A DNA stretch of 59,313 nucleotides, filler included, from Candidatus Lindowbacteria bacterium RIFCSPLOWO2_12_FULL_62_27 (GTDB lineage Bacteria > Lindowbacteria > 2-12-FULL-62-27): the NCBI GenBank assembly GCA_001784175.1. It is 4 parts of 4 records of this genome, joined end to end, with 100 filler letters (N's around TTAATTAATTAA, not from the genome) between each part and the next. Parts side by side here need not be neighbours in the genome. Positions count along the whole stretch, not along the records: positions 47,395 to 59,313 come from MFPR01000039.1; 3 more parts are not named here. One strand, written 5' to 3'. Made by a program: the position numbers and the translations under genes. The notes beneath the pieces are model-generated. The model was given only the letters and a program-made list of their open reading frames with translations, searched no databases and was not told where the DNA came from. Shown piece by piece: positions 38,401 through 56,899 of this stretch; positions within the stretch are counted from its first letter, which is position 1, and the number at the start of each line of letters is the position of its first letter.

Positions 38401-41400
38401 TCAGCAACCTCTACAATCAGAGCGGTGTCGCCCAGACCCTCGCCCGCAACTGGTGGGGCACGTCGGATGAAGTGACGATTGCGGAGAAGATCGCGGATCC
38501 GTCGGGGAGTGTGTGGCGGCCGTACAGGTTGGAACTTGTAGACACAGCGGCCGGCGCCGACACGGTCGCCCCTGAATCACCGTCAAGCGTAACGCTGGAC
38601 ACGAGCACGCCGGGCCAGATCACGCTCACGTGGGTCAATCCGACGATCAACGAGGATTCGGACCTCGGGACGGTGGGATTCGCCGGCCTCAACATCTTCC
38701 GGTTGGTCAACCAGCCCGATTCGTCCAACTGGTCCGACGGTATCTACGTCGTCCGGCAGACGACGGCGTTGGAGACGACGTGGATAGACACGGACGTGAC
38801 GGGCGGGAACACCTATTATTACCGGCTCACATCGAAGGACACGGCGCCGTTTGTGAACGAGTCGTTCGCCATGGATACATACTGGGCGACGGCGGCCGTC
38901 GCATACAGCGGGCCATCGTGGTATGTAAACGATACGTCGACATCCGGCGACTCGTACACGAGCGCGATCGGGGATGACACGACGGGCGCCGGGTCGGCGG
39001 GCGCGCCGTATGCGACCATCACGAAAGCCCTTCTGATGGCCAAGTCCGGCGACACGATTTATGTCGACCCCGGCGCGTACACCGCGCCGGTCGTGATCGA
39101 CACCGACAACCTCACGCTCGTCGGCGCGGACAATTCGCTTGCGGTCATCGACGTGGGCGCGAGCGGTGACGGCATTTCCGCCACGGGACGCACGGGGCTT
39201 TCGATCCAGAACATCGGCGTCGTCAACGCCTTGAACGGCGTCCTGTTCAACCAGGTCACGAACTCGACCATATCCACCGCCTACATCTTCGGATGCTCGA
39301 CGAACGGCATCCGCCTTACAAACGGGTCGGACACCAACACCCTCATCGGCAATACCGCGTTCTCGTGCCCGAACGGGATCGATCTGGAGGCGAGCGCCTT
39401 CAACACGCTGACGTACAACAGCGTCTCCACGAACTCGGCCATCAACATTCATCTCCTCGGCGCTTCGAACAACACCCTGAGCAACAACTACGCCGACGGC
39501 GGTTCGGGCGACGGCATCTATCTGGACAGCGGATCGAACAACAACACGCTGGAGACCAACAGCGCCGGCGGCAATACCGGCAGCGGGATTGTGATCGCCG
39601 GCAGTTCTTACAACAACATCTACGGCAACATCGCCGACACGAACGGCGCGCAGGGCGTTTATCTTCAGGCGAATTCGACCGGCAACACTATCAATTCCAA
39701 CTCGGTCGCCGGCAACGCCACAGGCATCTACGCGGCGCCGAATGCGGATTCAAACATCATCGCCGCCAACGCGGCCCTTTCGAACACGTCCTTCGGCATT
39801 TACCTGAGCGGCTGCACCGGCAACACGGTAAGCGGCAATACGGCCGATTACAACACCTCCTATGGGATATGGCTGTCCGCGTGCGCGAACACTGCGTTGA
39901 ACGGCAACGAGGCCGCCTCCAATTCGGACTACGGCATTCTCCTTGGAGGGGGATCGATGAACAACGCGGTGTCCGGAAACGTTTCCATGCTGAACGCCAC
40001 CGTCGGCATCTATCTTGCGGGAAGTTCGAACAACACGATCGTGGATAATGCCATCCGCGCCAACACCACCAACGGCGTCGAGTTCAGCGCGAGTTCCGAC
40101 AACAACATCCTGATGAACAACGGAATCACAGCCAACGGGATGGACGGCGTCGAAATCGGAAACAGCTCGAACAACATCATGGTTCAAAATCTGATCGCGT
40201 CGAACACTCAGTACCAGATATTCTGGTACGGGACATCTTCGGCCAACTTGATTTCGAAGAACAACATCTCCTACGCGCCCGGCAATCCGCCCCTCAGCGC
40301 CTATATCGCCCCGACCGCCGCGCCGGCAGTGATCGACCTGACGCGCAACTGGTGGGGCAGTACGGACACGGCGGAGATTCTGGCGATGACGGTGTACCAG
40401 GGAACCAACGGAGACACGCTCGTGTTCACCCCGTTTCGCATCGGAGTCGTGGACACGACCGCGGGCGCGGACACGGTCGCGCCCGAATCGCCGGAGACGG
40501 TGGCGGCGGACGCGCCGGTGAGCGCGGGATACGTGCGGATCACGTGGAGCGCGGTGACGGCGAACGAGGACGGCGACGCGGGCGCGGCCGATGTGAGTTC
40601 CTACCGCATCTACCGGTCGCTCACGGGCGACACGAGCGATTGGGTCGAAGCAATCGGCACGGCCGCCGGGGACAACTTCATCGACACGTCCGTCGCGCTT
40701 GGGACGACTTACTATTACCGCGTTACCGCCGTCGACACCGCGACGACGCCGAACGAGTCGTTTTATTCCGATTCCATCGTCAGCGCGACGCCGCCGATGT
40801 ACGACGGCCCGGCCTGGTTCGTGAATGACACGTCGGCGGCGGGCGACTCGTATACGAGCGCGTCCGGGAGCGACGGAACGGGCGACGGGTCGGCGGGCGC
40901 GCCGTTTCGCACCATCGCGAAAGCGCTTGATATGGCCGCATCCGGCGAGACCATCTACATCGACGCCGGTTACTACACGGAGACGGCGGTCATCGACACG
41001 GACGATATCACGATATCCGGCGTTGACTCCGGCGCGACCGTCATCAGTGCCGGCTCTACCGGCGATCCCGTCATTCACGCGCAGAATTGCGCGAATGTCA
41101 GGATTGAAAAACTCGGCGTTCGGAACGGCTATTCCGGGTTGCGGCTCGACAATGTGAATGGGGCGTATATCGAGGGCGTGGAGGCCAAGGACAATCAGTG
41201 GTTCGGCGTCGCCATAAGCGGCGGAACGAACCACACGCTGGTCTACATCTCCGCGACCGGCACGGAAACCGCCGGCGTCTACATCGACAATACGTCGGGC
41301 GACTCCATACAGAATTGTTACAGCAGTTCGAACGGCACAAACGGCTTTGAACTTTGGAATTCCGTCGGAAGCATGTGGAGCGGCAACACCGCGTCGAACA

Positions 41401-44400
41401 ACTCGGGCGCGGGATTTCAAGTCCGGTCGTGCGCGAGCAATAGCTTCTCAGGCAACACGGCCGATTCGAATGCGTCGAACGGCATGGAACTGGCATCGAG
41501 CACGGCCAATTTGGTGAAAGGCAATCGCATCGCCGGCAATCAGCAGGACGGCGTCTTGTTGGATTCTTCCTCGCTCAACGTATTTTCGCAGAACGATATC
41601 TCCTCAAACGCCGGGTATCAGGTGTACGTCACCGACGGCTCGGAATCGAATTGGTTTGCCAGAAACAACATCTTGCCTGGAGGCACATTCCCCGACAGCG
41701 CCGTGCTGAACACCAGCGGCAACGCGCAGGATTTTCAACGGAACTGGTGGGGCACGACGGATGAGTTCATCATCGAGTTGAGGCTAATCGACACATCCGG
41801 CTCGAATCTCGTCCAATTCTCGCCGTACGGCCTCGGCGTTGTGGATACATCGCTCGCCGGCGACTCGCTCGCGCCCTCGTCGCCGACCGGCGCGTCGGCG
41901 AACGGGGGGACGCCCGGACAGGTAACGGTGACGTGGTCGGATCCGGTTGTCGATGAGTACGGCGGCGGTTTGTCGGACTTGGCCGGGATCAAGATATACC
42001 GTTTGGTGGATTCGTTCGACACGCCGAACTGGGCGAATTTGCCGGTGAAATATGTCGCGGCGGCGGTTGGTTCGTGGGTCGACACGGACGTGATTGCGGG
42101 ACACACCTATCGTTACCGTCTCACGGCCTATGACGGCGCGGCGTTCATCAACGAGTCGTTCTTCAGCGACAGCGTGGGCGCGAGCGCGCTGAACCACGCG
42201 CCGTACATCGCGCCGGCCATAGCGAACCAGATGGACTCCGAGGACACGTCGCCGTGGAGTATCGCCCTGTCGTCATACGCCGGCGACACGGACGGCGACC
42301 CGCTGACGTGGAGCGTGACGGGCGGCGGGACGGTCGTGTCGGCGAGCGTGACCGGCGGGGAAACGCTGGACATCACGCCCACCGCGAACGCGTATGGCGT
42401 CGATAACCTGACGGTTTATTTGACGGACGGACAGGACACGGCATCGCAGGTCGTGTCCGTCACTCTGACATCGGTGAACGACGCGCCCGTTGCCGACGCC
42501 GGGTCGGACACTGCGATCGCGGCCGGCGCCACCGCCTATCTGACGGGTTCGGGATCGAGCGATGTCGAGGGGGCCGTCACTTATCTCTGGACACAGCTTG
42601 CCGGGCCGGCGATGACGCTGTCTCCGGATTCAGTGACGGCCGACGTATCGTTTGTTTCGGACACAGCCTATCTCGGCGATTATATTTTTCAACTGACGGT
42701 GGGCGACGGGATCGACACATCGGCCGACACGGTCGTGATCTCGGCCGGAAACGTGGCGCCGGTTGCCGATGCCGGGTCGGAGACGGTGTCTGTGACGCAC
42801 CCGGACACGGTGAATCTCAACGGCGGCGCCTCGTATGATTCGAACGGCGACACGCTTTACTATCTCTGGACGATCGTCTCGGGTCCGACGTCGCCGGCCA
42901 TCAGCGGCGCGGATTCGGTGGCCGCAAGTTTTGTCGCCGATTCTGTCGGCGTTTACGTCGTCACGCTGGAGGTATTCGACGGCACGGACACCACGACGGA
43001 CACGCTGGATGTGACGGCGTTGAACACCGCGCCGACGGCCAACGCCGGACCGGACACGTCGGTTACGGCCGGCGCCACCGCGCAGATTTTTGGGAGCGCG
43101 TCGAGCGACCCGAACGGCGACATGATCTCGTATTCATGGACGCAGACCGGCGGGCCGTCGGTGGAGTTGTCGGATTCGTTCGCCGCCAATCCGACATTTG
43201 TGCCGGTGATTGCCGCCACATATTATTTTGATCTGGCCGCGAGCGACGGATTTGACAGTGCGACGGATCAGGTGATGGTGACGGTGACTGCGGGCGCGCC
43301 GGCGGTGATGGAGAAGTCTGTCGACACGCACATTCTGGCGGACACGTATGAACAGGCTGTGCTGGCCGTCCATGTGCTGGACGCGAACGGCAACTGCGTC
43401 CCGAGTGAGGCGGTAACATTTGAAGTCACGTATCCGTCGACCGGCAACGACGCCGGGATTTCCCCTGCAGCGGCCTACACAGACGGCTCCGGCATCGCGC
43501 AGACGACGGTGTATTTGTCGTCGGCGACGGCGAGCAGTTTCTACCGCGTCCGGGCGAGCGTGTCGGGATTGACCCAGGACTTCTACGTTTACAACAACAA
43601 ACTTCATTTCGCGGCCCAAGTCTCGGCCGGCAACAATCGGGGATGGAAGATGTGGTCATACAACGGCGTGCCGGCAGCGACGACGGTGGCAGACGCCATC
43701 ACGCCTTATCTGTCCGACGCCGACATCTACGAGTGGCAGGCGGGGACGAATGAAAACACGAGCTTGGCCGGCGCGAGCGGCACGCATTATTACGCGCCGT
43801 CGGTGATCGAACGCGGGCGTGCGTACTGGATCAAGAGCAACGCGGGCGGGACGCTGCGCATCACGCCGGGGTTGACCAGCCCGTCAGAGACGGTGGCTGT
43901 GAGCCTGATCGCAGGCTGGAACCAAGTCGGGACCGGCCAGTTCTTCTTCACCGACTGGGATAAGTCCGTGCGGTTTTTCCGGCCGACCGATTCGGAACAC
44001 CTTGATACGCTGACGCCCCAGCAGGCGGAAGATTCCGGACTCATCCAGAATGCGGCCTACTGGTGGTCGGAGGACGACAGCACGTACTACTGGGGCCCGG
44101 ACACGGCGATGTATCCGCAGGTCCAGATGAAGCCGATGGCGGGATTCTGGCTGCTCGTGAATTCCGCCGTCGAGATGCTGATCATGCCCATCCCGGCCGA
44201 GCCGCAGGACTCGGTGGAGATATTGAATCAGGCGCCTGCATATCGGGCAGACAAGGGGACGAGCTACGCTCGGAGACAAGGGGACAAGGGGCGAACCCTG
44301 TCGGCGTATTACAAACAAAATCACAAAACGGGCGGCGAAAACGACTGGGCGATCCAGCTCATGGCGAGTGGCGGAGGTTCGAGGGACGTCCAGAATTATG

Positions 44401-45104
44401 TGGGCGTGAAAGCGACCGCGGGGGCAGCCAAGGCGGCGAGCCGTTTCGAGCCGCCGGCGACGGCGGGCGGGTACGTCGCACTAGCAGTCCGACGGTCGGA
44501 CGAACGGACGAACGGACGAACGGAATGGATGGCGGCGCTGTTCTCGGAACCCGTGACCGCGACCGACGCGCGAGACGCGGGCCGCGCGTGGGACGTGATG
44601 GTGGCGTCGGACATCGGCCAGGCCGTCACGCTCGCGTGGGACAACGTCGAGAATCTGCCAAGCGGCTATGAGGCGTATTTGATCGGCGCCCCCAACGGCC
44701 CCGTGAATTTACGCACGGTTTCTTCTGTATCGTTCCCCTTGTCTCAACGTCCCCTTGTCTCCTTGTCGCTCGTGTTGGGCGCGCCCGAATTCCTCGCGCC
44801 GTACTTGGCGGCGCCGCTCTCGAAGGAGAACACGTTCGTGTACCCGAACCCGGGGCCGGACGGGACAACGGGGAACATGACGTTCGCGTACAACCTGGGC
44901 GCGGCGGGCGACGTCAAGATCAAGATATTCGACGCGAGCGGGCGGCTCGTGCGCGAGCTGACCGGCACTGGCGCGGCGGGCGCGAACACCGTCGTGTGGG
45001 ACACGACCAACCGTCACGGCCAGAAGGTCGGCTCGGGCGTGTACATCTACAAGATCGAAAGCGGCGGCGACAAGCTCGTCGATAAATTGGCAATCGTTCG
45101 ATGA
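29430..45104 (+). CDS. Giant (>5200 aa) surface protein: Kelch-like start, ~7 beta-helix/FN3 modules, 7 FG-GAP repeats, PKD-like and Ig domains, FlgD-Ig/T9SS-like C-terminus; 5' truncated
   Basis: The frame is open from the contig edge (TNFWRYSISGNTW...). Motifs include WGDYDNDG, APVADAGSD/PTANAGPD and a C-terminal YPNP...KIKIFDASGRLVREL...WD...GSGVYIYKI. Confidence 0.9.
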   Translation, partial: TNFWRYSISGNTWETKAATPAGVSYGGALVYPGTGDTLYALGGNGGNFWAYTLPGPYPGPNWYVNDTSTSGDSYTSAVGSDTNEGSASAPFRTIIAAMAAASEGDTIYIDAGIYDSYTWVSATETAGVNIDKDSITLIGKDSGSTIIDPPGASSISTMYGIYADTQVGLTIKNLGVTGAYDGIHFYNVDSSTIESDSASSNGNYGIYLRVNSDTNTIKNNTASSNSRGIWLDASSNNTVTNNTAGSNSNEGIVLTSTSNNNTVTNNTASSNSSAGIWHGSSSNNTVTNNTANSNTNDGIYLQSSTNNTVTNNTASSNSRYGIWLDVTSNNNTVTNNTASSNSTFGIYLAASSNNNAVTGNTANSNLQHGIVLDASSNNRVIQNEVRLNTRYQVYIDNASSSDTVQKNNIEPSGTNPDSGVYNGSTIAANKFTVTRNWWNSTDTARIKQMIYQKSNGDSVIWQPFRLGQVDTTAFADTTAPDAPDTVAVTPSDTSLIVSWSAVTALEEANGGAVGLSGYRVYRSKVKDTSSWVKVAQTATGVTRWQDTDVVIGSPYYYRVTAFDTATFENESFFSDSQPSDSAMFTTTVNWYVNDTSTTGDSFTTAAGSDTASGKGTVAAPFKTIPRAMQFATAGDTIWVDAGLYDSYVKVSASETAGVYITVDSLTLIGKDSGATVIDPPGDSAVANLYGIYADTQTGLTIKNLGVTGARVGIYFMNVDMSTVSGDSASSCADHGILLRNGSDTNTVTSNTASSNSDRGIFLFSSSNNNTVTSNTAISNSTSGITLESNSNNNTVSNNTAISNKQNGIHMNSISNNTVSNNTASSNLSYGIYLSASANNSTVSNNTAISNGSSGIYLYSNSNNTVSNNTADSNSSYGITLDLSSNNTVVQNDVRNNTTYQIYIVGTSSSDTVQKNNIVPSATNPDSGVFNGSTVATNKFTFTRNWWNSTDTARIKQMIYQASNGDSVIWQPFRLGQVDTTAGADTTAPDAPDTVAVAPSDTILIVSWSSVTGLEEANGGAVGLAGYRVYRSPVISDTSLWTEIAQVGSTADGWQDTSPFVGKVYYYRVTAFDGASPYINESFYSDSIPGDSAPYTSQTDWYVNDGSTAGDSYTYATGSDMSGNGSKQTPFASIPKAMSVATAGDTIWIDAGLYDSFVTVNGTETVGVNIDKDSITLIGADSNATVIDPPGAAGTAGLYGIYADTQVGLTIKNLGVTGAYQGIHFYNVDQSTVAGDSVCSNGNYGIYLRINSDNNTLNGNSAASNSSFGIYLLSCSNNTVTNNTASSNSNYGIYLNAASNNMLTGNTASSNSPNGIYLYFASNNTLSGNTASSNAYTGIYVDGSSNNTLTNNTAASNGTYGVWLYGASTDNLFAQNTLDSNGAYQIYIDGSGGAGAADTFLKNNIRPSPDNPDSGVYNNTGNTFDFTRNWWGTTDSVAIGRMMTDTGAVNRIVYSPWRLGIVDTTAGADTVAPNDPDTVAASAAAGAGTVLVTWSAVTANEDGDAGAAGVAQYRVYRAGVADTSSWTQVGTPTGTGFTDSGMTIGATYYYRVTARDGAAFPNESYYSDSVVSATPSGWTNAAEPMGANAGVYIISSIQWGDYDNDGDLDLAVSGQDGGTNNRLIIYRNDGGGSFTNVAEPMGANAGVRQGSIQWGDYDNDGRLDLAVSGSDGTNYRLIIYRNDGGGSFTNVAEPMGANAGVRQGSIQWGDYDNDGRLDLAVSGVDGGANKRLIIYRNDGGGSFTNVAEPMGANAGVYYSSIQWGDYDNDGRLDLAVSGQDGGANYRFIIYRNGGGGSFTNVSEPMGANAGVRQGSIQWGDYDNDADLDLAVSGLDGGANRRLIIYRNDGGGSFTNVAEPMGANAGVQDGSIQWGDYDNDGRLDLAVSGAIDGGTNKRLIIYRNDGGGSFTNAAEPMGANAGVYAGSIQWSDYDNDGDLDLAVSGNDGTNKRLIIYRSDAIAPPNVRPNTPAINAPKGASVAQGDTVTFRWTKVTGDTTPDTGMTYNLRVGTASDKADIFAADTNSADSVGNAILGNVQNDTSAELVRSLTVGQTYYWSVQAVDQGMMRSAWATEETFTITLVPNTSGVWYVNDTSIVGDSWTTAIGYDTAAGNGTASNPYRTITYALSQALSGDTIYIDAGLYAETVVIDTDNIALIGKDSTATVIDPPGSDTGIYASGKSYLLIRSIGVTGAYDGIVFNNVDYSRLDADSAGGNSNYGVVLRNGSDTNTIVNGIFNSNASRGVVLWASYNDTVQTCVAASNSGVGIGVFSSGGGHTFTGNTTNSNTTAGIQIGAGIGGNLVKNNTITTSPNMGIYILNAPNNTIIGNIVKGAQPGIEVSASRNTIRNNFISQNSNGAGVYINGIADTNIVEQNDIAGNETGVMVILQARNNVIQKNNITGNTWELINRGGLAQTTGRNWFGSADSATIAAKISDTASAWQPWRLSRVDTSAGADTTAPDAPDTVAVTPSDTSLIVTWQGVSALEEPNGGAVGLSGYRIYRSPVISDTSLWTQIAQVGSTADGWQDTSPFVGKVYYYRVTAFDAASPYINESFYSDSIPGDSAPYTSQTDWYVNDGSTAGDSYTYATGSDISGNGSKQTPFASIPKAMTAATAGDTIWIDAGLYDSYVVISATETAGVNIDKDSITLIGKDSASTIIDPPGANSTSGLYGIYADTQVGLLIKNLGLTGAYDGIHFVNVDQVTLSGDSFSYNGRHGVILLNGADTNSVTGNAIDSNGSDGLELSAGAGCTISGNQVNFNGAAGILLSANASNNTVSNNAARQNATHGIHLNPADSNTISGNTLESNPTGIYLQTSHNNMISNNIADSNTNGIYLHQGSNLNTVSGNSANANAAVAGIMVDGGTNDTIINNTANSNSQDGIFINASTAITITGNTVQSNLINGIDAAGGNTGLLIADNIARSNTQHGIYLSASADLTARNNFVRFNAQAGILLEFAESIVISQNDVSGNDTGIWITGDASNNLILKNNISGNTVSNLYNQSGVAQTLARNWWGTSDEVTIAEKIADPSGSVWRPYRLELVDTAAGADTVAPESPSSVTLDTSTPGQITLTWVNPTINEDSDLGTVGFAGLNIFRLVNQPDSSNWSDGIYVVRQTTALETTWIDTDVTGGNTYYYRLTSKDTAPFVNESFAMDTYWATAAVAYSGPSWYVNDTSTSGDSYTSAIGDDTTGAGSAGAPYATITKALLMAKSGDTIYVDPGAYTAPVVIDTDNLTLVGADNSLAVIDVGASGDGISATGRTGLSIQNIGVVNALNGVLFNQVTNSTISTAYIFGCSTNGIRLTNGSDTNTLIGNTAFSCPNGIDLEASAFNTLTYNSVSTNSAINIHLLGASNNTLSNNYADGGSGDGIYLDSGSNNNTLETNSAGGNTGSGIVIAGSSYNNIYGNIADTNGAQGVYLQANSTGNTINSNSVAGNATGIYAAPNADSNIIAANAALSNTSFGIYLSGCTGNTVSGNTADYNTSYGIWLSACANTALNGNEAASNSDYGILLGGGSMNNAVSGNVSMLNATVGIYLAGSSNNTIVDNAIRANTTNGVEFSASSDNNILMNNGITANGMDGVEIGNSSNNIMVQNLIASNTQYQIFWYGTSSANLISKNNISYAPGNPPLSAYIAPTAAPAVIDLTRNWWGSTDTAEILAMTVYQGTNGDTLVFTPFRIGVVDTTAGADTVAPESPETVAADAPVSAGYVRITWSAVTANEDGDAGAADVSSYRIYRSLTGDTSDWVEAIGTAAGDNFIDTSVALGTTYYYRVTAVDTATTPNESFYSDSIVSATPPMYDGPAWFVNDTSAAGDSYTSASGSDGTGDGSAGAPFRTIAKALDMAASGETIYIDAGYYTETAVIDTDDITISGVDSGATVISAGSTGDPVIHAQNCANVRIEKLGVRNGYSGLRLDNVNGAYIEGVEAKDNQWFGVAISGGTNHTLVYISATGTETAGVYIDNTSGDSIQNCYSSSNGTNGFELWNSVGSMWSGNTASNNSGAGFQVRSCASNSFSGNTADSNASNGMELASSTANLVKGNRIAGNQQDGVLLDSSSLNVFSQNDISSNAGYQVYVTDGSESNWFARNNILPGGTFPDSAVLNTSGNAQDFQRNWWGTTDEFIIELRLIDTSGSNLVQFSPYGLGVVDTSLAGDSLAPSSPTGASANGGTPGQVTVTWSDPVVDEYGGGLSDLAGIKIYRLVDSFDTPNWANLPVKYVAAAVGSWVDTDVIAGHTYRYRLTAYDGAAFINESFFSDSVGASALNHAPYIAPAIANQMDSEDTSPWSIALSSYAGDTDGDPLTWSVTGGGTVVSASVTGGETLDITPTANAYGVDNLTVYLTDGQDTASQVVSVTLTSVNDAPVADAGSDTAIAAGATAYLTGSGSSDVEGAVTYLWTQLAGPAMTLSPDSVTADVSFVSDTAYLGDYIFQLTVGDGIDTSADTVVISAGNVAPVADAGSETVSVTHPDTVNLNGGASYDSNGDTLYYLWTIVSGPTSPAISGADSVAASFVADSVGVYVVTLEVFDGTDTTTDTLDVTALNTAPTANAGPDTSVTAGATAQIFGSASSDPNGDMISYSWTQTGGPSVELSDSFAANPTFVPVIAATYYFDLAASDGFDSATDQVMVTVTAGAPAVMEKSVDTHILADTYEQAVLAVHVLDANGNCVPSEAVTFEVTYPSTGNDAGISPAAAYTDGSGIAQTTVYLSSATASSFYRVRASVSGLTQDFYVYNNKLHFAAQVSAGNNRGWKMWSYNGVPAATTVADAITPYLSDADIYEWQAGTNENTSLAGASGTHYYAPSVIERGRAYWIKSNAGGTLRITPGLTSPSETVAVSLIAGWNQVGTGQFFFTDWDKSVRFFRPTDSEHLDTLTPQQAEDSGLIQNAAYWWSEDDSTYYWGPDTAMYPQVQMKPMAGFWLLVNSAVEMLIMPIPAEPQDSVEILNQAPAYRADKGTSYARRQGDKGRTLSAYYKQNHKTGGENDWAIQLMASGGGSRDVQNYVGVKATAGAAKAASRFEPPATAGGYVALAVRRSDERTNGRTEWMAALFSEPVTATDARDAGRAWDVMVASDIGQAVTLAWDNVENLPSGYEAYLIGAPNGPVNLRTVSSVSFPLSQRPLVSLSLVLGAPEFLAPYLAAPLSKENTFVYPNPGPDGTTGNMTFAYNLGAAGDVKIKIFDASGRLVRELTGTGAAGANTVVWDTTNRHGQKVGSGVYIYKIESGGDKLVDKLAIVR
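32380..37300 (+). repeat. Intragenic ~500-bp near-identical duplication (~32380-32890 and ~36790-37300)
   Basis: Both encode YRSPVISDTSLWTxIAQVGSTADGWQDTSPFVGKVYYYRVTAFD...PYTSQTDWYVNDGSTAGDSYTYATGSD with few nucleotide changes. Confidence 0.85.
34158..35293 (+). repeat. Seven ~165-bp FG-GAP/VCBS tandem repeats (predicted 7-bladed propeller)
   Basis: TNxxEPMGANAGV-var-SIQWGDYDNDGxLDLAVSG-var-RLIIYRNDGGGSF x7, nearly identical at the DNA level. Confidence 0.92.
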
Positions 45105-47294: not shown

Positions 47295-47394
47295 NNNNNN
47301 NNNNNNNNNNNNNNNNNNNNNNNNNNNNNNNNNNNNNNTTAATTAATTAANNNNNNNNNNNNNNNNNNNNNNNNNNNNNNNNNNNNNNNNNNNN
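47295..47394. other. Artificial contig spacer
   Basis: Same N/TTAATTAATTAA linker. Confidence 0.97.
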
Positions 47395-47395
47395 C

Positions 47396-47716
47396 GAGCC
47401 GACGACGACGGAGACGCTGAAGTTCACGGGACTGCGCGAGGACAAGAAGGCCTACATCCCACCGTCCGAGCCGACAACGACGGAGACGCTCAAGTTCACG
47501 GGCCTGCGCGAGGAAAAGAAAGCCTACGACCCACCGAGCGGTCCGACGACGACGGAGCCGCTCAAATTCACGGGACTGCGCGAGGATGAAAAACCATATA
47601 TCCCGCCGGCCGAGCCGGTGACGCCGAAAGTACAACCCCTGTCTCTGACCCTGACTCCGGAAGAGGGCAAGGGCGGCGTCCTGTCCACTTCCGCGACCGT
47701 GACTTCCGATGAATAA
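47396..47716 (+). CDS. C-terminal end of a gene with 24-aa (72-bp) tandem repeats [24 protein letters not shown]
   Basis: Open frame from the contig edge to TAA 47714-47716, three repeat copies, overlapping the next ATG. Confidence 0.7.
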
Positions 47717-50700
47717 CGCCCGTCCGTTGCCTTTGAAACGATTGACGGTAATCGGTCGGTCAAGGGCAGAACCCATTACCACGAATGGGTTCGAATGTCA
47801 CAAATATCCACCATACGGTAAAGGTTTTATTCGTTTAATTCGTGTTAATGGTTTTCCGGCGTTTACCGATGGGTTCCGATTGACGCTGTCTGTTGTCTCT
47901 TGCCTGTTGCCTCTAATATTTTTTCAAACCCTCTCGGCCCACGCGATGCAGATTTTTGTCAAGACCGCAGCAGGCAAGACGATCACGCTCGACGTCGAGC
48001 CGAGCGACGGCATCGAGAACGTCAAGGCGAAAATTCAGGATAAGGAGGGAACACCTCCGACGGAACAGAGCCTGAAATTCGCCGGCAAACAACTCGACGA
48101 CGGTCGGACGCTCTCCGACTACAACATCCAAAAAGAATCGACGTTGCATCTCGTCGTGAAGAAACAATCGTCCGCGGAGGCCAAAATTTCGTTCTGGGCA
48201 TACTCGGGCGCCACCGTGCGCGCGACCGTGGCCGGCGGCGTTGCCCCGTACAAGTACTCGATCCAAACCAACAACTCCGGCGCGTCAGTTTCATCGGACG
48301 GTCTCTACACCGCCGGTTCGACGGCCGGCGTCACCGACATCATCCGCGTCACTGACGACAACGGAACATATCTCGAAGGCAAGGTCGAGGTGCGCGCCAT
48401 CCCTAAACCCTACATCCCGCCCAGCGAGCCGACGACGACCGACCCGCTCAAATTCACGGGACTGCGGACGGAAATCGCGAAGCTCTCAATCGAGCCGCCC
48501 TACATCACTCCGGATGCGCCGACGGCCGGCGACCTCTTGACGTGCAATCTCAATGGGTTCACGGGCAATCCTGTCGAATTCAAATATGAATGGTTGATCA
48601 CCGGCCAGGGAATGGTTGACAAACGGCTTTCGGAAATGAAAATGCCCGACAGTCAAAAAAATGTGTTTCAGACGCAAGTGGGCTGGCCGTCGGTAGAATT
48701 TAAATGCGAGGTCACCGCGATCGGCAGTGACGATGCGAAAGTCACCGCCGTCTCACCACCCGTCACTCCGAAGGCCTCTACCGAACTCGCGATCAACCCC
48801 AAACAGACAAAAGTAAAGACCGGGGGCATGTCCAACTTCAACGCGCTGAACGGCACGGGCAAATTGACGTTTTCAATATCGGAGAATAACTCGGGCGCGT
48901 CGTTACAAGAGATGGTGGGGAATGCTTCAGCAACCTCCTACAAAGCCGGCGCCACCGCGAATGTCACCGATCGCGTGCGCGTCACCGACGAGGCCGGCAA
49001 ATTCGCCGAGGCCACGGTGGATGTCTACATCGGGGTTACCATCTCCCCGGCGGTGGGAGAAGCCAAGCCAGGCGGCGAGTTTCAGTTCACGAGTTCTGGC
49101 GGCGTCGGCAAGAAGACGTTTTCCATTTTATCGGATCCGGCCACCGGGCAGTATGGAACAACAAACACCAAGTCCGGCGCGTCGATCGACCCCGTGACCG
49201 GTCTCTTCAAATCCGGCGCGAGCGCTTCGTTCGAAAATGTCAAGGTTCAGGACGAGGCATACGATCAGGCGTATGCGAGCGCGCAGGTCAAGGAACCGGC
49301 GGTCCCGCCTGCAATGACCGGGAAGCCCGTCATCACGCCGGGTAAACCGTTCGTCGGCGAAAAGCTGACCTGCAGCGATGGAGACTGGACCGGAAATCCT
49401 TACTCCTACGCGTATGACTGGAAAAAACCATCAGGCCTGATCCAGCATGGAGGGAATACCTACATAACCGTCGACGTGGACTTCGGGCAGGAGATCACTT
49501 GCGAGGTCACGGCAACCAACCAATACGGAAACGTATCGGCGCTTTCCGACCCTGTCGTTCCCGGGGTCAAGGAGGGTCTGCCGGCCCTTGAGGGCGATCC
49601 GGTCGTCACGCCGGAGAAGCCGTTCGTGGGGAATACCCTCACCTGCGACCAAGGTAAATGGAAAGGCGACCCTACCGATTACTATTATCAGTGGTTCAAG
49701 GATAATTGGAAAGATCCGCAACAGACGAGTCAGACATACACAACGACGTCCGGCGATAAGAATAAAAGTTTCTACTGCGAGGTGGTCGCGGAGAATGGCG
49801 TCGGGAAGTCGCTTGCCGCCAAGTCCAACACGGTCAAGGTGACCGCCGGCCCGCCGGCCAACTATAAGTCGCCGACCGTCGACCCGGGACTTCGCAAGGA
49901 CGACGGGAAGTTCACATGTATGAATGGAAGCTGGACCGAATACCCCACGTCCTACACCTACCGCTGGCTGATCGACGGCGTGGAGGTCGAGGCCGCGACG
50001 GAGCAGAACTACGCGCCGACGCCGTCGGACGCGAACAAGCCTATCACCTGCGAGGTAACGGCGGTCAACAACACCGGCACGTCCGAGCCCGCGCTATCGT
50101 CCAATCACGGCATCTTCCAGCTCTCTACGCCGAAGGGCCAACCGAAGATCACCCCTGCGAACGGCACATTCGGCGATGTCTTTACCTGCGACAAGTCTTC
50201 GTGGACTTTCAAGCCCGACACATTCCTTTACCAGTGGCGCAGGAACGGCGCGGACATTCCCGCCGCCACCTCGACGACCTACCAGGCGGGGGATGAAGAC
50301 ATGAAACAGAGCCTCACCTGCGTGGTCACGGCGTATCGGCCGGGCCTTTCCGAACCGGGAGTGGGAACCTCGGATCCGGTGACTCCGAATTGGTTCCAAC
50401 CGAACCAACTCGGCGCGCCGACGATCAGCCCGACGTCGTTGATGGTCGGTGAGATGCTCACCTGCGATCCGGGACAATGGAGCGGCAAGCCGGCGATCAC
50501 GTATCAGTGGTACAGACAAGGATGGGAACAGATCGCGAACGCGACGGAAACGACTTATGTCACGGCAGAGAAGGATGCATGGCAGGAAATCCACTGTCAG
50601 GTAGCCGCGACCAATCCCTCAGGTGTCGCAACGGGGACGTCGAATAAGGTCAAACCGAGCGCTCCGGCGCCCATGAATACCGATTCTCCAACACTGACTC

Positions 50701-53700
50701 CTATCGAGCCGAAAGTCGGCGAGAAGCTCACCTGCGATAAAGGCGCGTGGACCAACGCAGCCTCCTTCACATACAAGTGGTACATCAACAACGTGGAGTC
50801 GTCGTGGCGGGCAAAGAACGAGTATCTCCAGACGTCAAGTTCCAGCGGCGACGCGGGCAAGGAGTTTTACTGCGTCGTGACGGGAAAATCGGCCGATCCA
50901 AACGGGCCGACGGCTTCCGCCCGTTCGAACACTGTCATTCCGAAAGAGCCTCCGCCGGTCGCGTCGACAAGTCCGTCGATTTATCCGAAGGAACCCTTCA
51001 TTGGAGATGCTCTGACCTGCAACCCGGGAAGCTGGAGTCCATCTCCGGATAAAGCCGTTTACCAGTGGCGGCGGGACGGCGAGGACATCGAGGGCGCGAC
51101 GGGCAAAGCCGAACTCGGCATGTACGCGACTCCACCGAAGTATACGACTGTTCTGGCGGACGGCTTGAAAAAGATCACCTGCGTCATCTTCGCGTATAAT
51201 AAGTCCGGCGATTTCGCGACTGGCGTTTCGAACGAGGTTGTTCCCAAATTCAAGGCGCCGGTGAACACGATTCGCCCCGTGTCTTCTGCCAGTAAGACCA
51301 CGAACAACGGGATTCCGAAGGGCGCGACCCTGACGTGCGATACCGGCGTGTGGAAGAATTATCCCACGGATTACTCCTACCAGTGGATGAGAGGGAGCAC
51401 GAAAGACCAGACGAAAGGGACGAAGATTCCGGACGCGACATCCAAGGATTACGCGGTAGCGCCGGCAGACGGCGGCATGTACGTCTGGTGCGTGGTCACG
51501 GCCACGAACTCAGCCGGATCGGCCGAGGCCCCTTCTTCGACTGTTTTCCTCATCATTAAGTTCCCCCCGGCCGGCGGCGTACCCACCCTTTCGCCGGGCA
51601 AGGCGCTTGTTGGGGAAAAACTCACCTGCGACGCGGGTACATGGACGCCAACGCCCTATTCTTATACACATACATGGTATCGGGACGGCAAGGAATTCTG
51701 GGCGCCAAGCGGCAGCGGCGCTCCACTCGACCCCAAGGCGCAGTATCAGACCGTCGCCACGGACGTGGGCAAGATATTCACCTGTGAAGTGACCGCAAAG
51801 GAAAAGAACGGCGTCGCCTCGGACCCGGCCACGTCAAACGAGGCCACGGTGATCTGGCCGACGATCGATACATCCGCAATAACCGTGAAAGTCACGCCGG
51901 CCGCTCTCGTAGAGGATGCGCATCCGGTCGAACCCCAGCGTCTCGATTGCGCTCCGCAAGACTTTAAGATCGACCTGGATAATTTCACATACAAATATTC
52001 CTGGTTCCGGGGTGGAGACAAGGTTTCGGACAAAACCGGTAAAGAATATGTGACAAGCATCGATGACGCGGGCAAGGATATGACCTGCGCCATGTCGGTG
52101 TCGAACAAGGGCGACGAGTTATTGGGATCGTTCCCGTCCGTCAATTCCGTGACCGTGACGCTTCGAAAGCCGGTAATCACGTCGCTCGAAATCCCCATTG
52201 ACAAGGAAAGCATGACCGGCAAGCTGACCTGTTCAGGGAAGTGGAAGGGGCAAGCGGACGAGGTCAAATACTGGTGGGAGGTCGACGGCGTCGCGATTCC
52301 GGGCGCGAATTCGAACGTCTACCAGATGGCGGCGGCGGACAACAAGAAAGGACTCACCTGCGCGCTCAAAGTCTCCAACAAGGCCGGCGATGACAGCAAG
52401 AAAAGCACGCTCACGATCCCCGAAGTGACGGCAACCCTGCGGCCGACCAGCCCGGCCTTTAAGGGAAAGACGGAGGAACTGGCGAATTACACCTTCCCAC
52501 CGGGCAGCGTGTTCGACTGCAAAGCCGGCGGTTGGACTGAGGGTACCAAGTACGCATACAAGTGGCTGATAGACGGGGTCGAAATTCCGGGCGCGAAGGA
52601 CGCCTCATACACGGCGCCCATGGATCCGGCGAGTCAGAAAATCAGCTGCAAAATCACCGGCGACGATTTCTTCGGCGAACGCTCGGCGCTGAGCAATCCT
52701 GTGGCCGTCCTGGATACCACGTTCAGACAAACTGAATTTACGCCCGAAAAACCGAAGTATGACGGAACCATTAAGCAAGAAGTATTCGTGGGAGGCCTAG
52801 AACATAATGCGGCCACGCAGAATGTGCGGCTCAAGTGCAATCCCTCCAAGGAGTGGGACGCAATCAGCGCCGACAATTGGACGCTTACATGGTATAAGGA
52901 CAACGCCGTTCATCAGCGTAATACCAAGAAAGGACAAGCGGGAAACGATCCGGCGATCACTTACAATGCTTTGTCGCCGAGTAATGGGTGGTATTTGGGG
53001 CTGGCCGAGGCCGACGTTGGCCATACGTTCACATGTGAATTCACCGCCACGGAAGGTGGCACTGCAAAGACCGGCCGCTCCGCGCCATTCATGGCCACGG
53101 CGGGGGCGAAAGCTTTTTATATTGACCAGGGAGAACTGTTCGCACCGGAACCGCGGAAAGATCCGAATCTCACGTTCGCTGACCAACAGGTCATGGGGGG
53201 CAGGAACGAGGCGACCTGCAACGTCGGCACGGGCTGGAGTCCGCCCGCGCCGTTCTCGTATCGAATCACGTGGTACAGAAACGGCGACCCCATCAAGGAG
53301 GAGAATATCGACCTGCCGAAGAACAGTGTGAAGTACACGCCGGAATATTCTTTTCCGGACATGCAGCGTATTTCGTGCGAGGTTGTGGCCGCCCGCTATG
53401 CGATGAAGATGAAGGTGTCAGTGACGTCGGGCAGTCTAATCTACGATGTCGGCGAATCCCCAAAAGATCCGACCGTCTGGGTCTTGACCAATCCCAATGG
53501 GAATACAGAAACGGTGAAAAAGAGCGACCTGCCGTCCGGCTATGAGTTGTACATCGATTATGACGCATCTGCCCTCGTCGAACGACGCCCCTCGTCGAAT
53601 CATCTGATCGTGATGTACAATGGCGTGCTCCAACCCGTGGATGCCGCAGATACTTGGGGCGTGGCAACCGGCGCCGCCCCGACGTCCACAGGCGATGTCA

Positions 53701-54038
53701 CGCTTTACACCGCCGGCAAGATATCGGGATCGATGACGTTCACCCGGCGCGTAGACAATGCAAACGTTATCAAAGCCGGCGGATCGGACTTTCCCAATAA
53801 CACAACAAGCATGACGTCCAGCGCCACGGCTTATGAAATTATATCGACTACCAAAGGCCTTACTCTTCTTCTGACGCCGACGACCACCAAGTCCTCCGTA
53901 AAATTTGCCGTACAAGCGACCTATGCCAACGCGTTTGCCATGAAGTCATACACGATTAACATAGAACTTCGCAAAGAGGGATCCTACATTTCGCTGGACA
54001 AATTCAAGCTGACCATCGATCCCGGGAAGGGAGGATAA
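47709..54038 (+). CDS. Secreted giant protein: signal peptide, ubiquitin domain, ~15 Cys-paired Ig-like repeats
   Basis: Hydrophobic stretch ending LSAHA, then MQIFVKT..., then repeats P...VGExLTCxxGxW...YxW...TY...DxGxxIxCxVTAxN. The true start codon is uncertain. Confidence 0.88.
47946..48173 (+). other. Eukaryote-type ubiquitin domain within the 47709 CDS
   Basis: [70 protein letters not shown]; 60/70 identical to human ubiquitin; the tail is VKKQSS instead of LRLRGG. Confidence 0.97.
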
Positions 54039-54043
54039 TCGTC

Positions 54044-56347
54044 ATGACGGATTTCCCGCGGATTCTGCGCCGGGCGATGTTGCCTCTCCTCTGTCTCTTG
54101 CTTTTGAATACCGCCGCGCGGGCCGACGATGTCGTCGAGGTCGCAAAACCGTCGGCCGCCCGGGAGTCCTACGCGCCGGGCGAGGACGTGACGATCCAAT
54201 CCGAGGTGAAGAACACGAAGGCGTTTCCGATCCTCGTCGTCGCGCGGCTCCGCGTCATCGGGCCGGACGGGACGGAAATCTACAATGAGGAGAAAGACCT
54301 GGGCGAAATCGCCGGCAAGGCCGCCGCGATGGCGTCGTTCACCCTCAAGCTCCCCGCGGATGCCGGGGCCGGCGATTATTCCGCGACATTCGAACTGCGA
54401 AACCCATATTTCGCCACAGCCTCCTACTTCCAGAACAAGGGCAAACCCTTCGTCGTCTTCGAGGTCAAACTGTCGGAAGGCGCGAGGGCCGATCCCATCA
54501 GCGAGGCCAAAAAAATCCTTTCCCGCATGGTCGACGCGATGAACTGGCGCGACATCGACGCCCTCATGGACCCCGTCGCCCGCGGCGCGCGGGTGTCGAT
54601 GAACGGCAAGGCGTCGGGCGCCGGAGATTTCCGGATGGCGCTGTCGTCTGTCCTCCCGTTTCTGTCCGACCTTGTCTGGGACGCGCAGGTGACGCACGGC
54701 ACGATCGATCCGAAAACCGGCGCGGTCCGCCTCCGCGTCCGGTCGACCTATTCGGCCAAACTCGCCGAACCCGTCGGCGTCACGTCGGCTTCGCTGGCCA
54801 AGCCGAAGGACCTGGAATCCGAGCAGAAACGCATCACGGAGGCGTTCAACACGTCGGCGGAGGAGATATATGAGTTCAACCGCGCCGCGGGCGGCCAGTT
54901 GCAGGTCACCGAAATCGTCTCGGCCCTGCCGCTCGACGCCAAACTGCTCGATCGCATCGCCCTCATGGGCGCGGAGTGGGAGGCCAAGGTCGCGGTGTTC
55001 GGGCTGTTTTATTACATGGAGCAAAACGATCTCGGCAAATTCAGCGCGATGATCGACGATGGATTCGTCAACAATGACGACAACGGATTCAAACACAACA
55101 AGGCCGATTTTATCGAGTCCATCAAAGCCGACCTCGACCATCTCACCGCCATCGACCACAACGTCCGCGTCGAGGACATCCAGTTCAGCGCCGGGCATTC
55201 CGCCGCCCGCGTCCCCGTCACATGGGACCGCCGCGCCCGCATCGCCAACACGAGGTCGGAGTGGACCGTCAAGGATCAGAAGACGACCATGACGCTGAAA
55301 TACGACGCCGGCTTCAAACTCGCGCAGATCGAGGGCAAGCCTTTGTTCGGCAACTCGAGCCGGATGACGAGAAAGACGCTGATCGGCGCGGGCGAACTCG
55401 ACGGAACGACGATCACGCTGGCGATCGCGATCAGCGACGCGAGAGAGACGGCCGTCGCGTCGTCGTCCGACTTTCCGGGAAGTGAGTTGACCAACGTCTT
55501 GGCGCCGTCCTCCGGATCGTCGCAAACATTTACCTATACCGGCGCCGTGCAGACCTTCACAGCGACCGCGAACGCCGTGTTTACCATCAAAGCCTGGGGC
55601 GCCGGCGGTGGCGGCGGCGGATGGGACGCCGGCAATGGAGGCGCTGGCGGAGGCGGCGCCTATTCGACGGCAACGGTCACTTTGGCGAAGGGCGATATTA
55701 TTCAGATCTATGTGGCCCAAGGCGGTGACTCGGGGGCCAGTGAAGTCGGCAACATTGGTCTCGGCCCCGTCCTCGGCAACGGGCCGGGCGGATTTGGATA
55801 TGGGACGGGCGGCCGGGGCGGAAACGTCGCCAAATTTGCATCCGGCGGCGGAGGAGGCGGTGGTGGATCGTCCGCGGTTACGAATCAAAGCGGAGCGACG
55901 ATCTATCTGGTTGCGGCCGGCGGCGGCGGCGGCGGTGGCGGGAATTCGGTGGGTGTTTTAAATGGTGGAGCGGGCGGCGCTGGCGGTGTGAGTGGAACGG
56001 CATCCGCCGGCGCAGGTGGAGCGACCGGCGGTTCCGGATCAAAAAATGGAACCAACGGTGACGACAAGGGCGTGGGATTAGACGGCGGCGGCGGTGGCGG
56101 CGGCGGTGGCGGATATACCGCCGGCGGCACGGGCGGCAGCGTGACTGCGGTCGATGATGACGGCGGCGGGGGCGGTGGGGCCGGAGGAAACAGCACCGGC
56201 ACAGTCACGACCGGCAACGGCACAGTGCCCGGCAATTCGGCCGACGCGGATTTGACCGCCCTCGCGGCAGGCGGCACCGGTTCTACCGCAAATGTACCCG
56301 GCAACGCAACCCGCGGCGGCCACGGCCTGGTCAAAATATCATGGTGA
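54044..56347 (+). CDS. Secreted protein with an Ig-like domain, NTF2/SnoaL-like domains and a C-terminal glycine-rich domain
   Basis: SD GGAGG, signal peptide (AARA|D), and a glycine-rich domain FTYTGAVQTF...KAWGAGGGGG...VAQGG...GGGGGGSS...LVAAGGGGGG...GGHGLVKISW. Confidence 0.85.
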   Translation: MTDFPRILRRAMLPLLCLLLLNTAARADDVVEVAKPSAARESYAPGEDVTIQSEVKNTKAFPILVVARLRVIGPDGTEIYNEEKDLGEIAGKAAAMASFTLKLPADAGAGDYSATFELRNPYFATASYFQNKGKPFVVFEVKLSEGARADPISEAKKILSRMVDAMNWRDIDALMDPVARGARVSMNGKASGAGDFRMALSSVLPFLSDLVWDAQVTHGTIDPKTGAVRLRVRSTYSAKLAEPVGVTSASLAKPKDLESEQKRITEAFNTSAEEIYEFNRAAGGQLQVTEIVSALPLDAKLLDRIALMGAEWEAKVAVFGLFYYMEQNDLGKFSAMIDDGFVNNDDNGFKHNKADFIESIKADLDHLTAIDHNVRVEDIQFSAGHSAARVPVTWDRRARIANTRSEWTVKDQKTTMTLKYDAGFKLAQIEGKPLFGNSSRMTRKTLIGAGELDGTTITLAIAISDARETAVASSSDFPGSELTNVLAPSSGSSQTFTYTGAVQTFTATANAVFTIKAWGAGGGGGGWDAGNGGAGGGGAYSTATVTLAKGDIIQIYVAQGGDSGASEVGNIGLGPVLGNGPGGFGYGTGGRGGNVAKFASGGGGGGGGSSAVTNQSGATIYLVAAGGGGGGGGNSVGVLNGGAGGAGGVSGTASAGAGGATGGSGSKNGTNGDDKGVGLDGGGGGGGGGGYTAGGTGGSVTAVDDDGGGGGGAGGNSTGTVTTGNGTVPGNSADADLTALAAGGTGSTANVPGNATRGGHGLVKISW

Positions 56348-56364: not shown

Positions 56365-56688
56365 TTATGGATACTTTATGGTTGTCGCCCGTCCACGTTT
56401 TGCAATGGGCAGTTCGGCAAGAATCATGGGTACAAGACGCTTCAAGTCGGAAAGTTTATTCGTGGGTGCGGCGAGAATCAGGACAGCGATGTTTAACGCG
56501 GCAAGATTCTGCTGATGAGGGAGGTTTTGATCGACCGTGATGAATACGTCGAATTCTTTTTCGCAGAGAGACAACAATCTGCCGTTCCGGACGCCTTTCC
56601 ATCTCATGTCCTCGACAGTTTTGACGTCATGCCCGGCGATTTCCCCGGCTAACCGGCGGTCAATGCATTCGTCAAGCAGTATCTTCAA
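56365..56688 (-). CDS. DUF5615 PIN-like toxin
   Basis: TTG start; KILLDECI...GHDVKTV...W.GVRNGRLL...FDVFITVDQNL.HQQN. Confidence 0.85.
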   Translation of the reverse strand: MKILLDECIDRRLAGEIAGHDVKTVEDMRWKGVRNGRLLSLCEKEFDVFITVDQNLPHQQNLAALNIAVLILAAPTNKLSDLKRLVPMILAELPIAKRGRATTIKYP

Positions 56689-56689
56689 T

Positions 56690-56899
56690 TCAGAATGGGC
56701 CGGCCAGTACTTTCGACTTGGCTTCCTCGAGGAATGCGATGACCTGATCACGGCTGACCGTCGGGAACCCGTCGAGGAACTCATCGATGGACGATCCATC
56801 TTCCAGGTATTCTATCAGAGTCTGGGCGGGCACTCGGGTCCCCGCAAATACGGGTGTCCCACTCATAATTTGCGGGTCAACAATAATCACGCTGTTCAT
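56690..56899 (-). CDS. DUF433 antitoxin
   Basis: DPQIMSGTPVFAGTRVP...YLEDG..IDEFLDGFPTV. Confidence 0.9.
   Translation of the reverse strand: MNSVIIVDPQIMSGTPVFAGTRVPAQTLIEYLEDGSSIDEFLDGFPTVSRDQVIAFLEEAKSKVLAGPF

Follow-up and report, generated by a model that had tools for sequence, protein, structure and literature searches.

The locus considered here raises the question of why a bacterium should carry an almost canonical ubiquitin at the beginning of a very large protein, and of why the residues in which this ubiquitin departs from the eukaryotic one include so many of those on which the eukaryotic machinery relies. The DNA analyzed is a stretch of 59,313 nucleotides from Candidatus Lindowbacteria bacterium RIFCSPLOWO2_12_FULL_62_27 (assembly GCA_001784175.1), referred to as the window, and the element in question is a ubiquitin domain that opens a protein of 2,030 residues counted from its Met1. 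Ubiquitin is among the most conserved eukaryotic proteins, and the reason why so large a part of its surface is frozen is still debated (PMC4862753). An earlier note on this DNA had proposed that the substitutions concentrate on the recognition surfaces, that the domain can be neither activated nor clipped off, and that it either evades or decoys the eukaryotic machinery or had its hydrophobic patches polished off after the loss of its partners. According to the present data, the first of these proposals is partly supported: it holds for one face of the molecule, made up of Ile44, Ile36, Arg42, and the tail, but does not extend to the recognition surfaces as a whole. As to the cause, we lean slightly towards an exported, non-conjugatable ubiquitin cap whose canonical face has lost its constraint.

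The domain was identified from both its sequence and its predicted fold. In a phmmer search against the PDB chains, residues 1–73 aligned without gaps to human ubiquitin (E-value of about 4e-35 for the single-ubiquitin chains), and the Pfam ubiquitin family PF00240 was matched with 85.4 bits against a cut-off of 25.4. The AlphaFold2 model, built from an alignment of 56 sequences, had a mean predicted local distance difference test score (pLDDT) of 88.1 and showed a beta-grasp with the strand-strand-helix-strand-strand order. Among the 50 best chains retrieved by Foldseek, 48 had template modeling (TM) scores of 0.89–0.96, nearly all of them being ubiquitin; the exceptions were two Lys27-linked di-ubiquitin chains with a TM score of about 0.3. 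No second ubiquitin was found in the 59,313-nt window.

As a reference, we used the canonical animal ubiquitin repeat taken from polyubiquitin records, in which 112 out of 119 repeat units are identical. The comparison revealed 16 differences: ten in the core (L8A, T9A, E16D, T22G, I36T, D39T, Q40E, R42S, I44K, and E51D) and six in the tail (L71V, R72K, L73K, R74Q, G75S, and G76S), where LRLRGG has become VKKQSS; the identity is 60/70 in the core and 60/76 (79%) overall. This list and the altered tail match exactly those given in the earlier note, and the translation also bore out its statement that the seven lysines (6, 11, 27, 29, 33, 48, and 63), M1, F4, and S65 are retained. Three additional lysines (K44, K72, and K73) are present, and none of the 16 changed positions falls in what we take to be the buried core (residues 3, 5, 13, 15, 17, 23, 26, 30, 43, 50, 56, 61, 67, and 69). 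The domain contains no cysteine, the first one of the protein being residue 200. Moreover, there is no free Gly75-Gly76 after LRLR; the VKKQSS tail is followed, some eight residues further on, by the next domain. In view of what has been published on R42 and on Gly75-Gly76, the sequence leaves no room for activation, conjugation, or removal by ubiquitin-specific proteases. Thus, the proposal that the domain can be neither activated nor clipped off in the way known from eukaryotes is supported by the missing di-glycine, with the changes at R42, R72, and R74, and with a tail that runs into the following domain.

Whether the clustering of the changes exceeds chance depends on the set of residues chosen. 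Using the patches defined in section 5 of the review PMC4822132 (the same sets are given in PMC6471062), changes affect two out of the four residues of the Ile44 patch (L8, I44, H68, and V70), all three of the Ile36 patch (I36, L71, and L73), and all six of the LRLRGG tail; none of the three residues of the Phe4 patch, of the five of the TEK box, or of the four of the Asp58 patch is changed, and S65 is retained. When all the surfaces of that review were pooled over residues 1–76, 9/23 surface positions were changed vs. 7/53 others (Fisher's test, p = 0.014), a value due to the tail, whose divergence is a trivial consequence of the fusion; over residues 1–70, the same comparison gave 3/17 vs. 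7/53 and was not significant (p = 0.46). For the core residues of the Ile44 and Ile36 patches, the counts were 3/5 vs. 7/65 (p = 0.019), and the addition of R42, which yields the set of the earlier note and is a post hoc choice, gave 4/6 vs. 6/64 (p = 0.003). Along the sequence, a scan statistic found five changes within one stretch of nine residues, a borderline result (p = 0.056). Hence the face formed by Ile44, Ile36, Arg42, and the tail does concentrate the changes, as had been proposed, whereas the Phe4 patch, the TEK box, and the Asp58 patch are intact, and clustering over all the named core surfaces did not hold.

A second set of positions, fixed by experiment and not by the earlier note, was derived from the mutational scan of ubiquitin in yeast. 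According to section 10 of PMC4862753, R42, I44, K48, G75, and G76 are sensitive in the dimethyl sulfoxide (DMSO) control, and L73, L8, V70, I36, and L71 are named as sensitized under stress; our set comprises the positions named in that text. Eight of these ten positions are changed in the window vs. 8/66 of the others (p = 2.5e-5) and, in the core only, 4/6 vs. 6/64 (p = 0.003); among the five positions that are sensitive in the DMSO control, K48 alone is retained. Three changes do not fit the clustering, namely E16D, T22G, and E51D. The last one is conservative, D16 occurs in 40/58 of the bacterial relatives described below, and position 22 is the second most variable among them, with S in 36/58; D16 and S22 are the majority states of that class, so that E16D is no peculiarity of the window copy.

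The ubiquitin fusion is a real bacterial gene. The window consists of four contigs joined by runs of N around a TTAATTAATTAA linker (positions 15754–15853, 29329–29428, and 47295–47394), so that features lying across a join are not genomic neighbors. The ubiquitin gene is located on the last contig (47395–59313), a segment identical to an 11,919-base metagenome contig, and its neighbors on this contig are bacterial. The GC content at third codon positions (GC3) is 0.724 in the ubiquitin domain and 0.717 in the remainder of the gene. Full-length proteins of 2,030 residues from other assemblies share the join between ubiquitin and the remainder of the protein (hereafter, the passenger) and differ from the window copy by one to three residues, all of them outside ubiquitin. 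In four DNA runs from four studies, the contigs spanning 47805–48134 and those covering position 48114 onward showed zero differences and a similar depth within each run, with no variant inside the ubiquitin domain. As a separate observation, canonical-type ubiquitin genes rich in GC, in which I36, D39, Q40, and R42 are unchanged, also occur in these groundwater and soil metagenomes, together with at least one tandem polyubiquitin.

The context of the domain adds three elements to what the earlier note had described: an in-frame leader, fifteen cysteine pairs, and a large class of bacterial proteins built in the same way. The leader, predicted to be a Sec-type signal peptide, ends with A-H-A directly before Met1. 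It was assessed with a home-made, heuristic rule: the best ten-residue hydropathy had to reach at least 1.6, with small residues at positions −3 and −1. The leader has a hydropathy of 2.72, a value reached by none of 7,126 control windows taken from the two giant proteins of the stretch, 78 of which pass the looser rule. The ubiquitin frame stays open upstream to an ATG at 47709; the GC3 of 47709–47879 read in frame is 0.40, compared with a minimum of 0.56 and a median of 0.72 for the 171-base blocks of the gene, and this region therefore looks non-coding.

Ubiquitin accounts for the first 4% of the protein. The passenger begins with an eight-residue linker and continues with beta-rich domains, about 15 immunoglobulin (Ig)-like repeats, each with a cysteine pair, and about 215 unmatched C-terminal residues; Pfam retrieved Ig_2 (94.2 bits) and Ig_3 (35 bits). 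The 30 cysteines form 15 consecutive pairs, none of which lies within ubiquitin, and they fit an oxidizing, extracytoplasmic compartment. In the NCBIfam scan, residues 23–108 matched weakly the N-terminus of Rad23 (40.2 bits against a cut-off of 207.3). A search with residues 99–420 retrieved the protein itself and 21 relatives, most of them 26–31% identical and none with ubiquitin, which indicates that ubiquitin is a lineage-specific addition. These relatives are large bacterial proteins, many of which carry N-terminal signal-like or lipoprotein-like leaders and C-terminal sorting tags.

The distribution of similar proteins was then considered. One genome per prokaryotic species was scanned with the window ubiquitin as a query; at least 373 encoded relatives were found, of which the best 80 loci, bacterial and archaeal, were kept and 96 ubiquitin units were counted in them. 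Twenty of the 96 are tandem polyubiquitin units, nearly all on tiny contigs, and presumably represent eukaryotic contamination. In 54 units, a hydrophobic stretch with small residues at −3 and −1 immediately precedes Met1; 22 did not satisfy the rule, four of which were included after visual inspection (in two, position −1 is G or P; the other two are cut by a contig end). The resulting class comprises 58 units, all different in sequence, in 56 of the 80 loci. They come from isolates with megabase contigs (Dyella, Saccharibacillus, Cohnella, Pseudovibrio, and Ruminococcus albus 8), a complete Pseudomonas chromosome, metagenome-assembled genomes of many phyla, and Methanothrix archaea. Gly75-Gly76 is retained in 6/58 and absent in 52/58, and from 0 to 1,402 residues follow ubiquitin. 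Among the 51 passengers of at least 20 residues, 22 have a recognizable envelope module (11 an autotransporter barrel, five SLH, three a type IX secretion system (T9SS) sorting domain, and three IPTL-CTERM), and other passengers contain fn3, SdrD_B, SpaA, TIG, Big_9, and cadherin-like domains. These are architectures for display on the cell envelope, in which ubiquitin occupies the extreme N-terminus. Apart from the Bacteroides proteins BfUbb and BoUbb, we found no paper on this wider class of secreted or surface ubiquitins; in the first 300,000 characters of a polymorphic-toxin survey such a ubiquitin domain is not mentioned, nor does ubiquitin appear in the main text of the fibrillar-adhesin surveys PMC8286594 and PMC9210967.

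Some loci of the scan deserve mention in their own right. Six loci from Dyella and Collimonas (L008, L068, L057, L007, L013, and L077) encode stand-alone ubiquitins of 73–76 residues behind a signal peptide; in the first three of them, LRLRGG is intact and followed by the stop, and the predicted exported product would be nearly identical to mature eukaryotic ubiquitin. In Acidimicrobiia and Microthrixaceae, three loci (L030, L046, and L044) harbor pairs of ubiquitin genes without a signal-like leader. In L030 and L046, each ubiquitin precedes a shared T-G-V-V-T-Y-Q segment, and in L044, a threonine-rich stretch; they represent a different actinobacterial class, probably cytoplasmic or differently exported. 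Lastly, in Methanothrix and Methanotrichaceae (L037 and L033), a signal-like leader abuts ubiquitin, and one of the two proteins has a passenger of 1,391 residues.

The class ubiquitins are long-resident genes under strong purifying selection and not contamination. Their GC3, which ranges from 0.17 to 0.96, tracks the GC content of the host locus (r = 0.89). Among 1,711 pairs, 1,387 are saturated at synonymous sites; in the 324 finite pairs, the median nonsynonymous (dN) and synonymous (dS) divergences are 0.094 and 1.69 and the median dN/dS, a check that the earlier note had suggested, is 0.054. The relatives differ from canonical ubiquitin at one to ten of the 70 core positions, so that the ten of the window tie for the most. 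The positions changed in the window are soft spots of the whole class: their median non-canonical fraction in the 58 relatives is 0.17 vs. 0.026 at the others (p = 1.7e-4). Likewise, the six core positions that are sensitive in yeast (8, 36, 42, 44, 48, and 70) have a median non-canonical fraction of 0.10 vs. 0.034 for the other 64 (two-sided p = 0.04), with changes at R42 in 19% of the relatives, at L8 in 14%, at V70 in 12% (mostly to I), at I44 in 9%, at K48 in 7%, and at I36 in 3%. The lysines are retained in the relatives equally.

To describe the erosion of the face, a patch-destroying change was defined as a non-hydrophobic residue at any of positions 8, 36, 44, and 70, or as the replacement of R42 by anything but K. 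The window ubiquitin has four such changes; among the 58 relatives, 45 have none, nine have one, and four have two. R42 and the hydrophobicity at 8 or 44 tend to be lost together (4/7 vs. 5/51, p = 0.008; L051, L006, L035, and L040), which suggests that the canonical face is retained or given up as a whole. The four relatives with two changes comprise two autotransporters, one protein with a T9SS tail, and one in which we found no passenger domain. In a tree of 60 ubiquitins, the window copy has the longest terminal branch (0.24 vs. a median of 0.053); the tree is nearly a star, with 3/57 forks well supported, and resolves neither the origin or origins of the class nor the number of patch losses.

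The following scenario can be depicted for the exported cap that we favor. A eukaryote-type ubiquitin would have been acquired horizontally behind a Sec-type leader; the protein, which is most likely exported, would be cleaved after A-H-A, leaving ubiquitin Met1 as the mature N-terminus. Ubiquitin, permanently fused through the short linker to a stalk of presumably disulfide-bearing Ig-like repeats, would then form the N-terminal cap, or tip, of an extracytoplasmic protein whose architecture resembles that of fibrillar adhesins. Outside the cell it should meet no E1, no E2, no deubiquitinating enzyme (DUB), and no cytosolic ubiquitin receptor, and the constraint on Arg42, Ile44, Leu8, Ile36, and LRLRGG would consequently be gone. 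The residues of the face may have drifted, or have been selected, towards smaller or polar ones (A, T, S, and K), while the fold core and the other faces stayed as they were; the softened positions of the class and the wholesale loss in the window would fit such a relaxation, possibly with some gain in solubility for an exposed tip. The proposal that the patches were polished off after the loss of partners fares better than its alternative, since the critical positions are more variable in the class and the window has four patch-destroying changes vs. two at most in the relatives, although relaxation as the cause is our interpretation.

Several points weigh against this explanation. H68 and V70 of the Ile44 patch are retained, and most of the relatives keep L8 (50/58), I44 (53/58), I36 (56/58), and R42 (47/58); these residues may therefore still matter in the class, and their loss in the window could reflect a changed function rather than drift. 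The sample of the best 80 loci is biased towards the closest matches, more diverged and perhaps more eroded members lying outside it. The searches retrieved no diverged orthologue that has these changes: a search with residues 1–260 gave eukaryotic polyubiquitins only, the 90% protein cluster contains only near-identical copies, and a scan of metagenomes for K44 and D51 in their context retrieved only the 11,919-base contig itself, with a pattern so narrow that partial matches could have escaped it. No surface anchor or sorting domain was detected in the passenger by Pfam or NCBIfam, and among the hits of a feature search with the last 216 residues, all scoring below 0.9, there was no anchor family; “surface” could therefore be “secreted”. 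Furthermore, there are three candidate start codons, none of them behind a GGAGG-type Shine–Dalgarno motif such as precedes three other genes of the window, the leader read from the TTG at 47880 has no basic residue, and the public gene calls start mostly at 47946 (2,030 residues and no leader) and otherwise at 47709.

The prevalence of the 47946 start and the TTG without a Shine–Dalgarno motif would suit a protein that begins in the cytoplasm at Met1, without a signal peptide, and either stays there or is secreted by a leaderless route, with a fast-folding domain plugging the channel. We regard this as improbable: the 22-codon hydrophobic core with A-H-A was matched by none of the controls, the same junction recurs in the 54 units (plus four by eye) found elsewhere, the fifteen cysteine pairs argue for an oxidizing compartment, and Pfam and NCBIfam revealed no signal for leaderless secretion, whether of the RTX type or another. 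A role as a eukaryote-directed decoy, or a means of evasion, towards a host or predator, with lysines that might accept chains, appears hardly more probable. The seven lysines, the Phe4 patch, the TEK box, the Asp58 patch, and S65 are all retained, and mimicry could explain a class whose sequence is near-eukaryotic and under purifying selection; however, lysine retention is no higher in the window copy than in its relatives, the domain, with a Sec-like leader before it and some 1,950 residues of disulfide-type Ig repeats after it, would be topologically outside the eukaryotic cytosol, no injection system or eukaryote-associated feature was seen on the ubiquitin contig, and the source is groundwater or soil metagenomes. 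This part of the earlier note found no support, because an exported domain would never encounter E1, E2, DUBs, or cytosolic receptors. Even less probable, in our opinion, is that ubiquitin is released and kills competitors, as it does in Bacteroides fragilis and B. ovatus. The window domain, with its predicted leader, would resemble BfUbb in having a signal peptide, and it likewise lacks the di-glycine (PMC3352274, PMC11467351), yet in the same sources BfUbb and BoUbb are stand-alone proteins that depend on a C-terminal cysteine or disulfide, and the window protein shows no evident release site, with neither a SusCD-type nor an immunity gene on its contig.

The most serious competitor is that positions 8, 9, 36, 39, 40, 42, 44, and 71–73 were remodeled by selection for an extracellular ligand, the domain acting as an adhesive tip; we consider it possible, though clearly less probable than the loss of constraint. 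Seven of the ten core changes fall in two segments (8–9 and 36–44) that adjoin the tail, and the rest of the domain is strongly constrained (median dN of 0.13 and dS of 1.8 between the window and the class). Engineered ubiquitin binders diversify the same face, and such binders are among the structural matches of the domain (8pf0 with phmmer; 3mtn and 4i6l with Foldseek). An N-terminal domain on a repeat stalk is also the layout of fibrillar adhesins as described in PMC8286594 and PMC9210967, the main texts of which nevertheless do not contain ubiquitin. On the other hand, no ligand is known, no orthologues show the new residues to be conserved, the replacements are small or generically polar (A, A, T, T, E, S, and K) with no obvious hydrophobic or aromatic site, and the same positions vary differently in the relatives. 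A broader form of the idea, to which we give marginally less credit, is that a captured and displayed ubiquitin is an evolvable tip, its face being kept in most lineages and rebuilt here (A8, A9, T36, T39, E40, S42, K44, and the basic tail) as a new binding surface; if true, the rebuilt face would be a natural analogue of the “ubiquitin variant” binders on a ubiquitin-tipped fibrillar adhesin.

The features surrounding the ubiquitin domain are collected in Table 1.

Table 1. Features of the window discussed in the text, with their positions, strand, and basis of assignment.
Feature	Positions	Strand	Basis
5,202-residue protein with beta-helix blocks, FG-GAP-like repeats, and C-terminal T9SS sorting domain	29496–45104	+	Por_Secre_tail 32.1 bits, FlgD_ig 41.9 bits
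3' end of upstream gene, truncated by contig end (stop 47714–47716)	47396–47716	+	Translation
Probable non-coding spacer	47717–47879	.	In-frame GC3
Predicted Sec-type signal peptide, 22 codons from TTG 47880, A-H-A then Met1	47880–47945	+	Translation, hydropathy rule
Ubiquitin domain, 76 codons	47946–48173	+	Translation, phmmer, Pfam, AlphaFold2, Foldseek
Passenger, 1,954 residues, same frame as ubiquitin (stop 54036–54038)	48174–54038	+	Pfam, cysteine count
Downstream gene, 767 residues, signal-peptide-like N-terminus	54044–56347	+	Open reading frame (ORF) list, Pfam
DUF5615 gene	56365–56799	-	23.5 bits
DUF5615 gene	57411–57767	-	72.5 bits

Upstream of the spacer, the end of the truncated gene encodes three tandem P-T-T-T-x-x-L-K-F-T-G-L-R linker motifs, and one more is present in the ubiquitin protein (copies at 47399, 47471, 47543, and 48429 in a motif scan). 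Within the spacer, a 55-base segment (47780–47834) was assembled in the four runs as a separate contig of higher depth, whose foreign flanks on either side agree between the runs; it has the appearance of a short repeat with a further copy elsewhere in the genome or community. The gene downstream begins 6 bases past the stop of the ubiquitin gene, behind a GGGAGG motif, and the two are probably co-transcribed; its product has an NEW3/MG2-like beta-sandwich (NPCBM_assoc, a weak match of 26.9 bits) and a glycine-rich C-terminal half with G-G-x-G runs. The two DUF5615 genes code for what we take to be PIN-like small proteins of the toxin–antitoxin type. No E1, E2, or E3 enzyme was seen on the 11.9-kb contig in the ORF list or the profile scans. 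The T9SS tail of the giant protein on another contig implies that the organism has T9SS cargo; the ubiquitin protein has no such tail.

If their export is accepted, these bacterial ubiquitins amount to a natural experiment, in which the fold has gone on evolving after its removal from the conjugation system. In the class, the fold and most of the surface are still constrained, and the positions that are critical in yeast (R42, I44, L8, V70, and the tail) vary more, the window copy being the furthest along this path. Such sequences would help in separating the requirements of ubiquitin for folding from those for its activation and reading, and they provide natural variants for testing the dependence on E1, DUBs, and receptors. 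With the present protein, a giant Ig-stalk protein of a candidate phylum joins a class of displayed ubiquitins of which we found no description in print.

Compared with the other members of the class, the window protein shares the small-x-small motif followed by Met1, the loss of the tail, and the arrangement in which ubiquitin leads a multi-domain protein that is presumably exported; it differs in its very long stalk of cysteine-pair Ig repeats without a recognized anchor, in being the most patch-eroded of 59 ubiquitins, and in its longest branch. Rad23-type proteins and the fusions of ubiquitin with ribosomal proteins are likewise larger proteins that begin with a ubiquitin fold. These proteins are cytosolic, and their Ile44 face docks proteasome receptors or they are cleaved after Gly76, whereas the window protein, with that face lost and no cleavage site, is in all likelihood an exported one. 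The engineered binders (ubiquitin variants and Affilins; 8pf0, 8peq, 3mtn, and 4i6l) resemble it in keeping the fold while surface residues of the beta-sheet face are replaced; they differ in having been selected in the laboratory for a target. With the fibrillar adhesins of PMC8286594 and PMC9210967, it has in common a tandem-repeat stalk and a distinct domain at the far end; it differs in the anchor, none being found in the window protein, whose adhesive role is only putative.

The closest known systems are BfUbb and BoUbb, the latter reported in 2024 (PMC11467351): as far as the accounts in PMC3352274, PMC5705921, and PMC11467351 go, these, like the window domain with its predicted leader, are acquired eukaryote-type ubiquitins with a signal peptide, without di-glycine, and not conjugatable. 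BfUbb is about 63% identical to human ubiquitin, requires its C-terminal cysteine or disulfide for killing (PMC3352274, PMC11467351), is imported by ButCD, and targets a periplasmic peptidyl-prolyl isomerase. Compared by description, the window domain is closer to the canonical sequence, lacks cysteine, and continues into some 1,950 further residues; moreover, BfUbb keeps many of the residues that contact E1 (PMC3352274), whereas the window ubiquitin has lost R42 and I44. Exported bacterial homologues of ubiquitin were thus already known; what is new here is a ubiquitin that is fused rather than free, placed on a giant Ig stalk, and with its recognition face largely erased.

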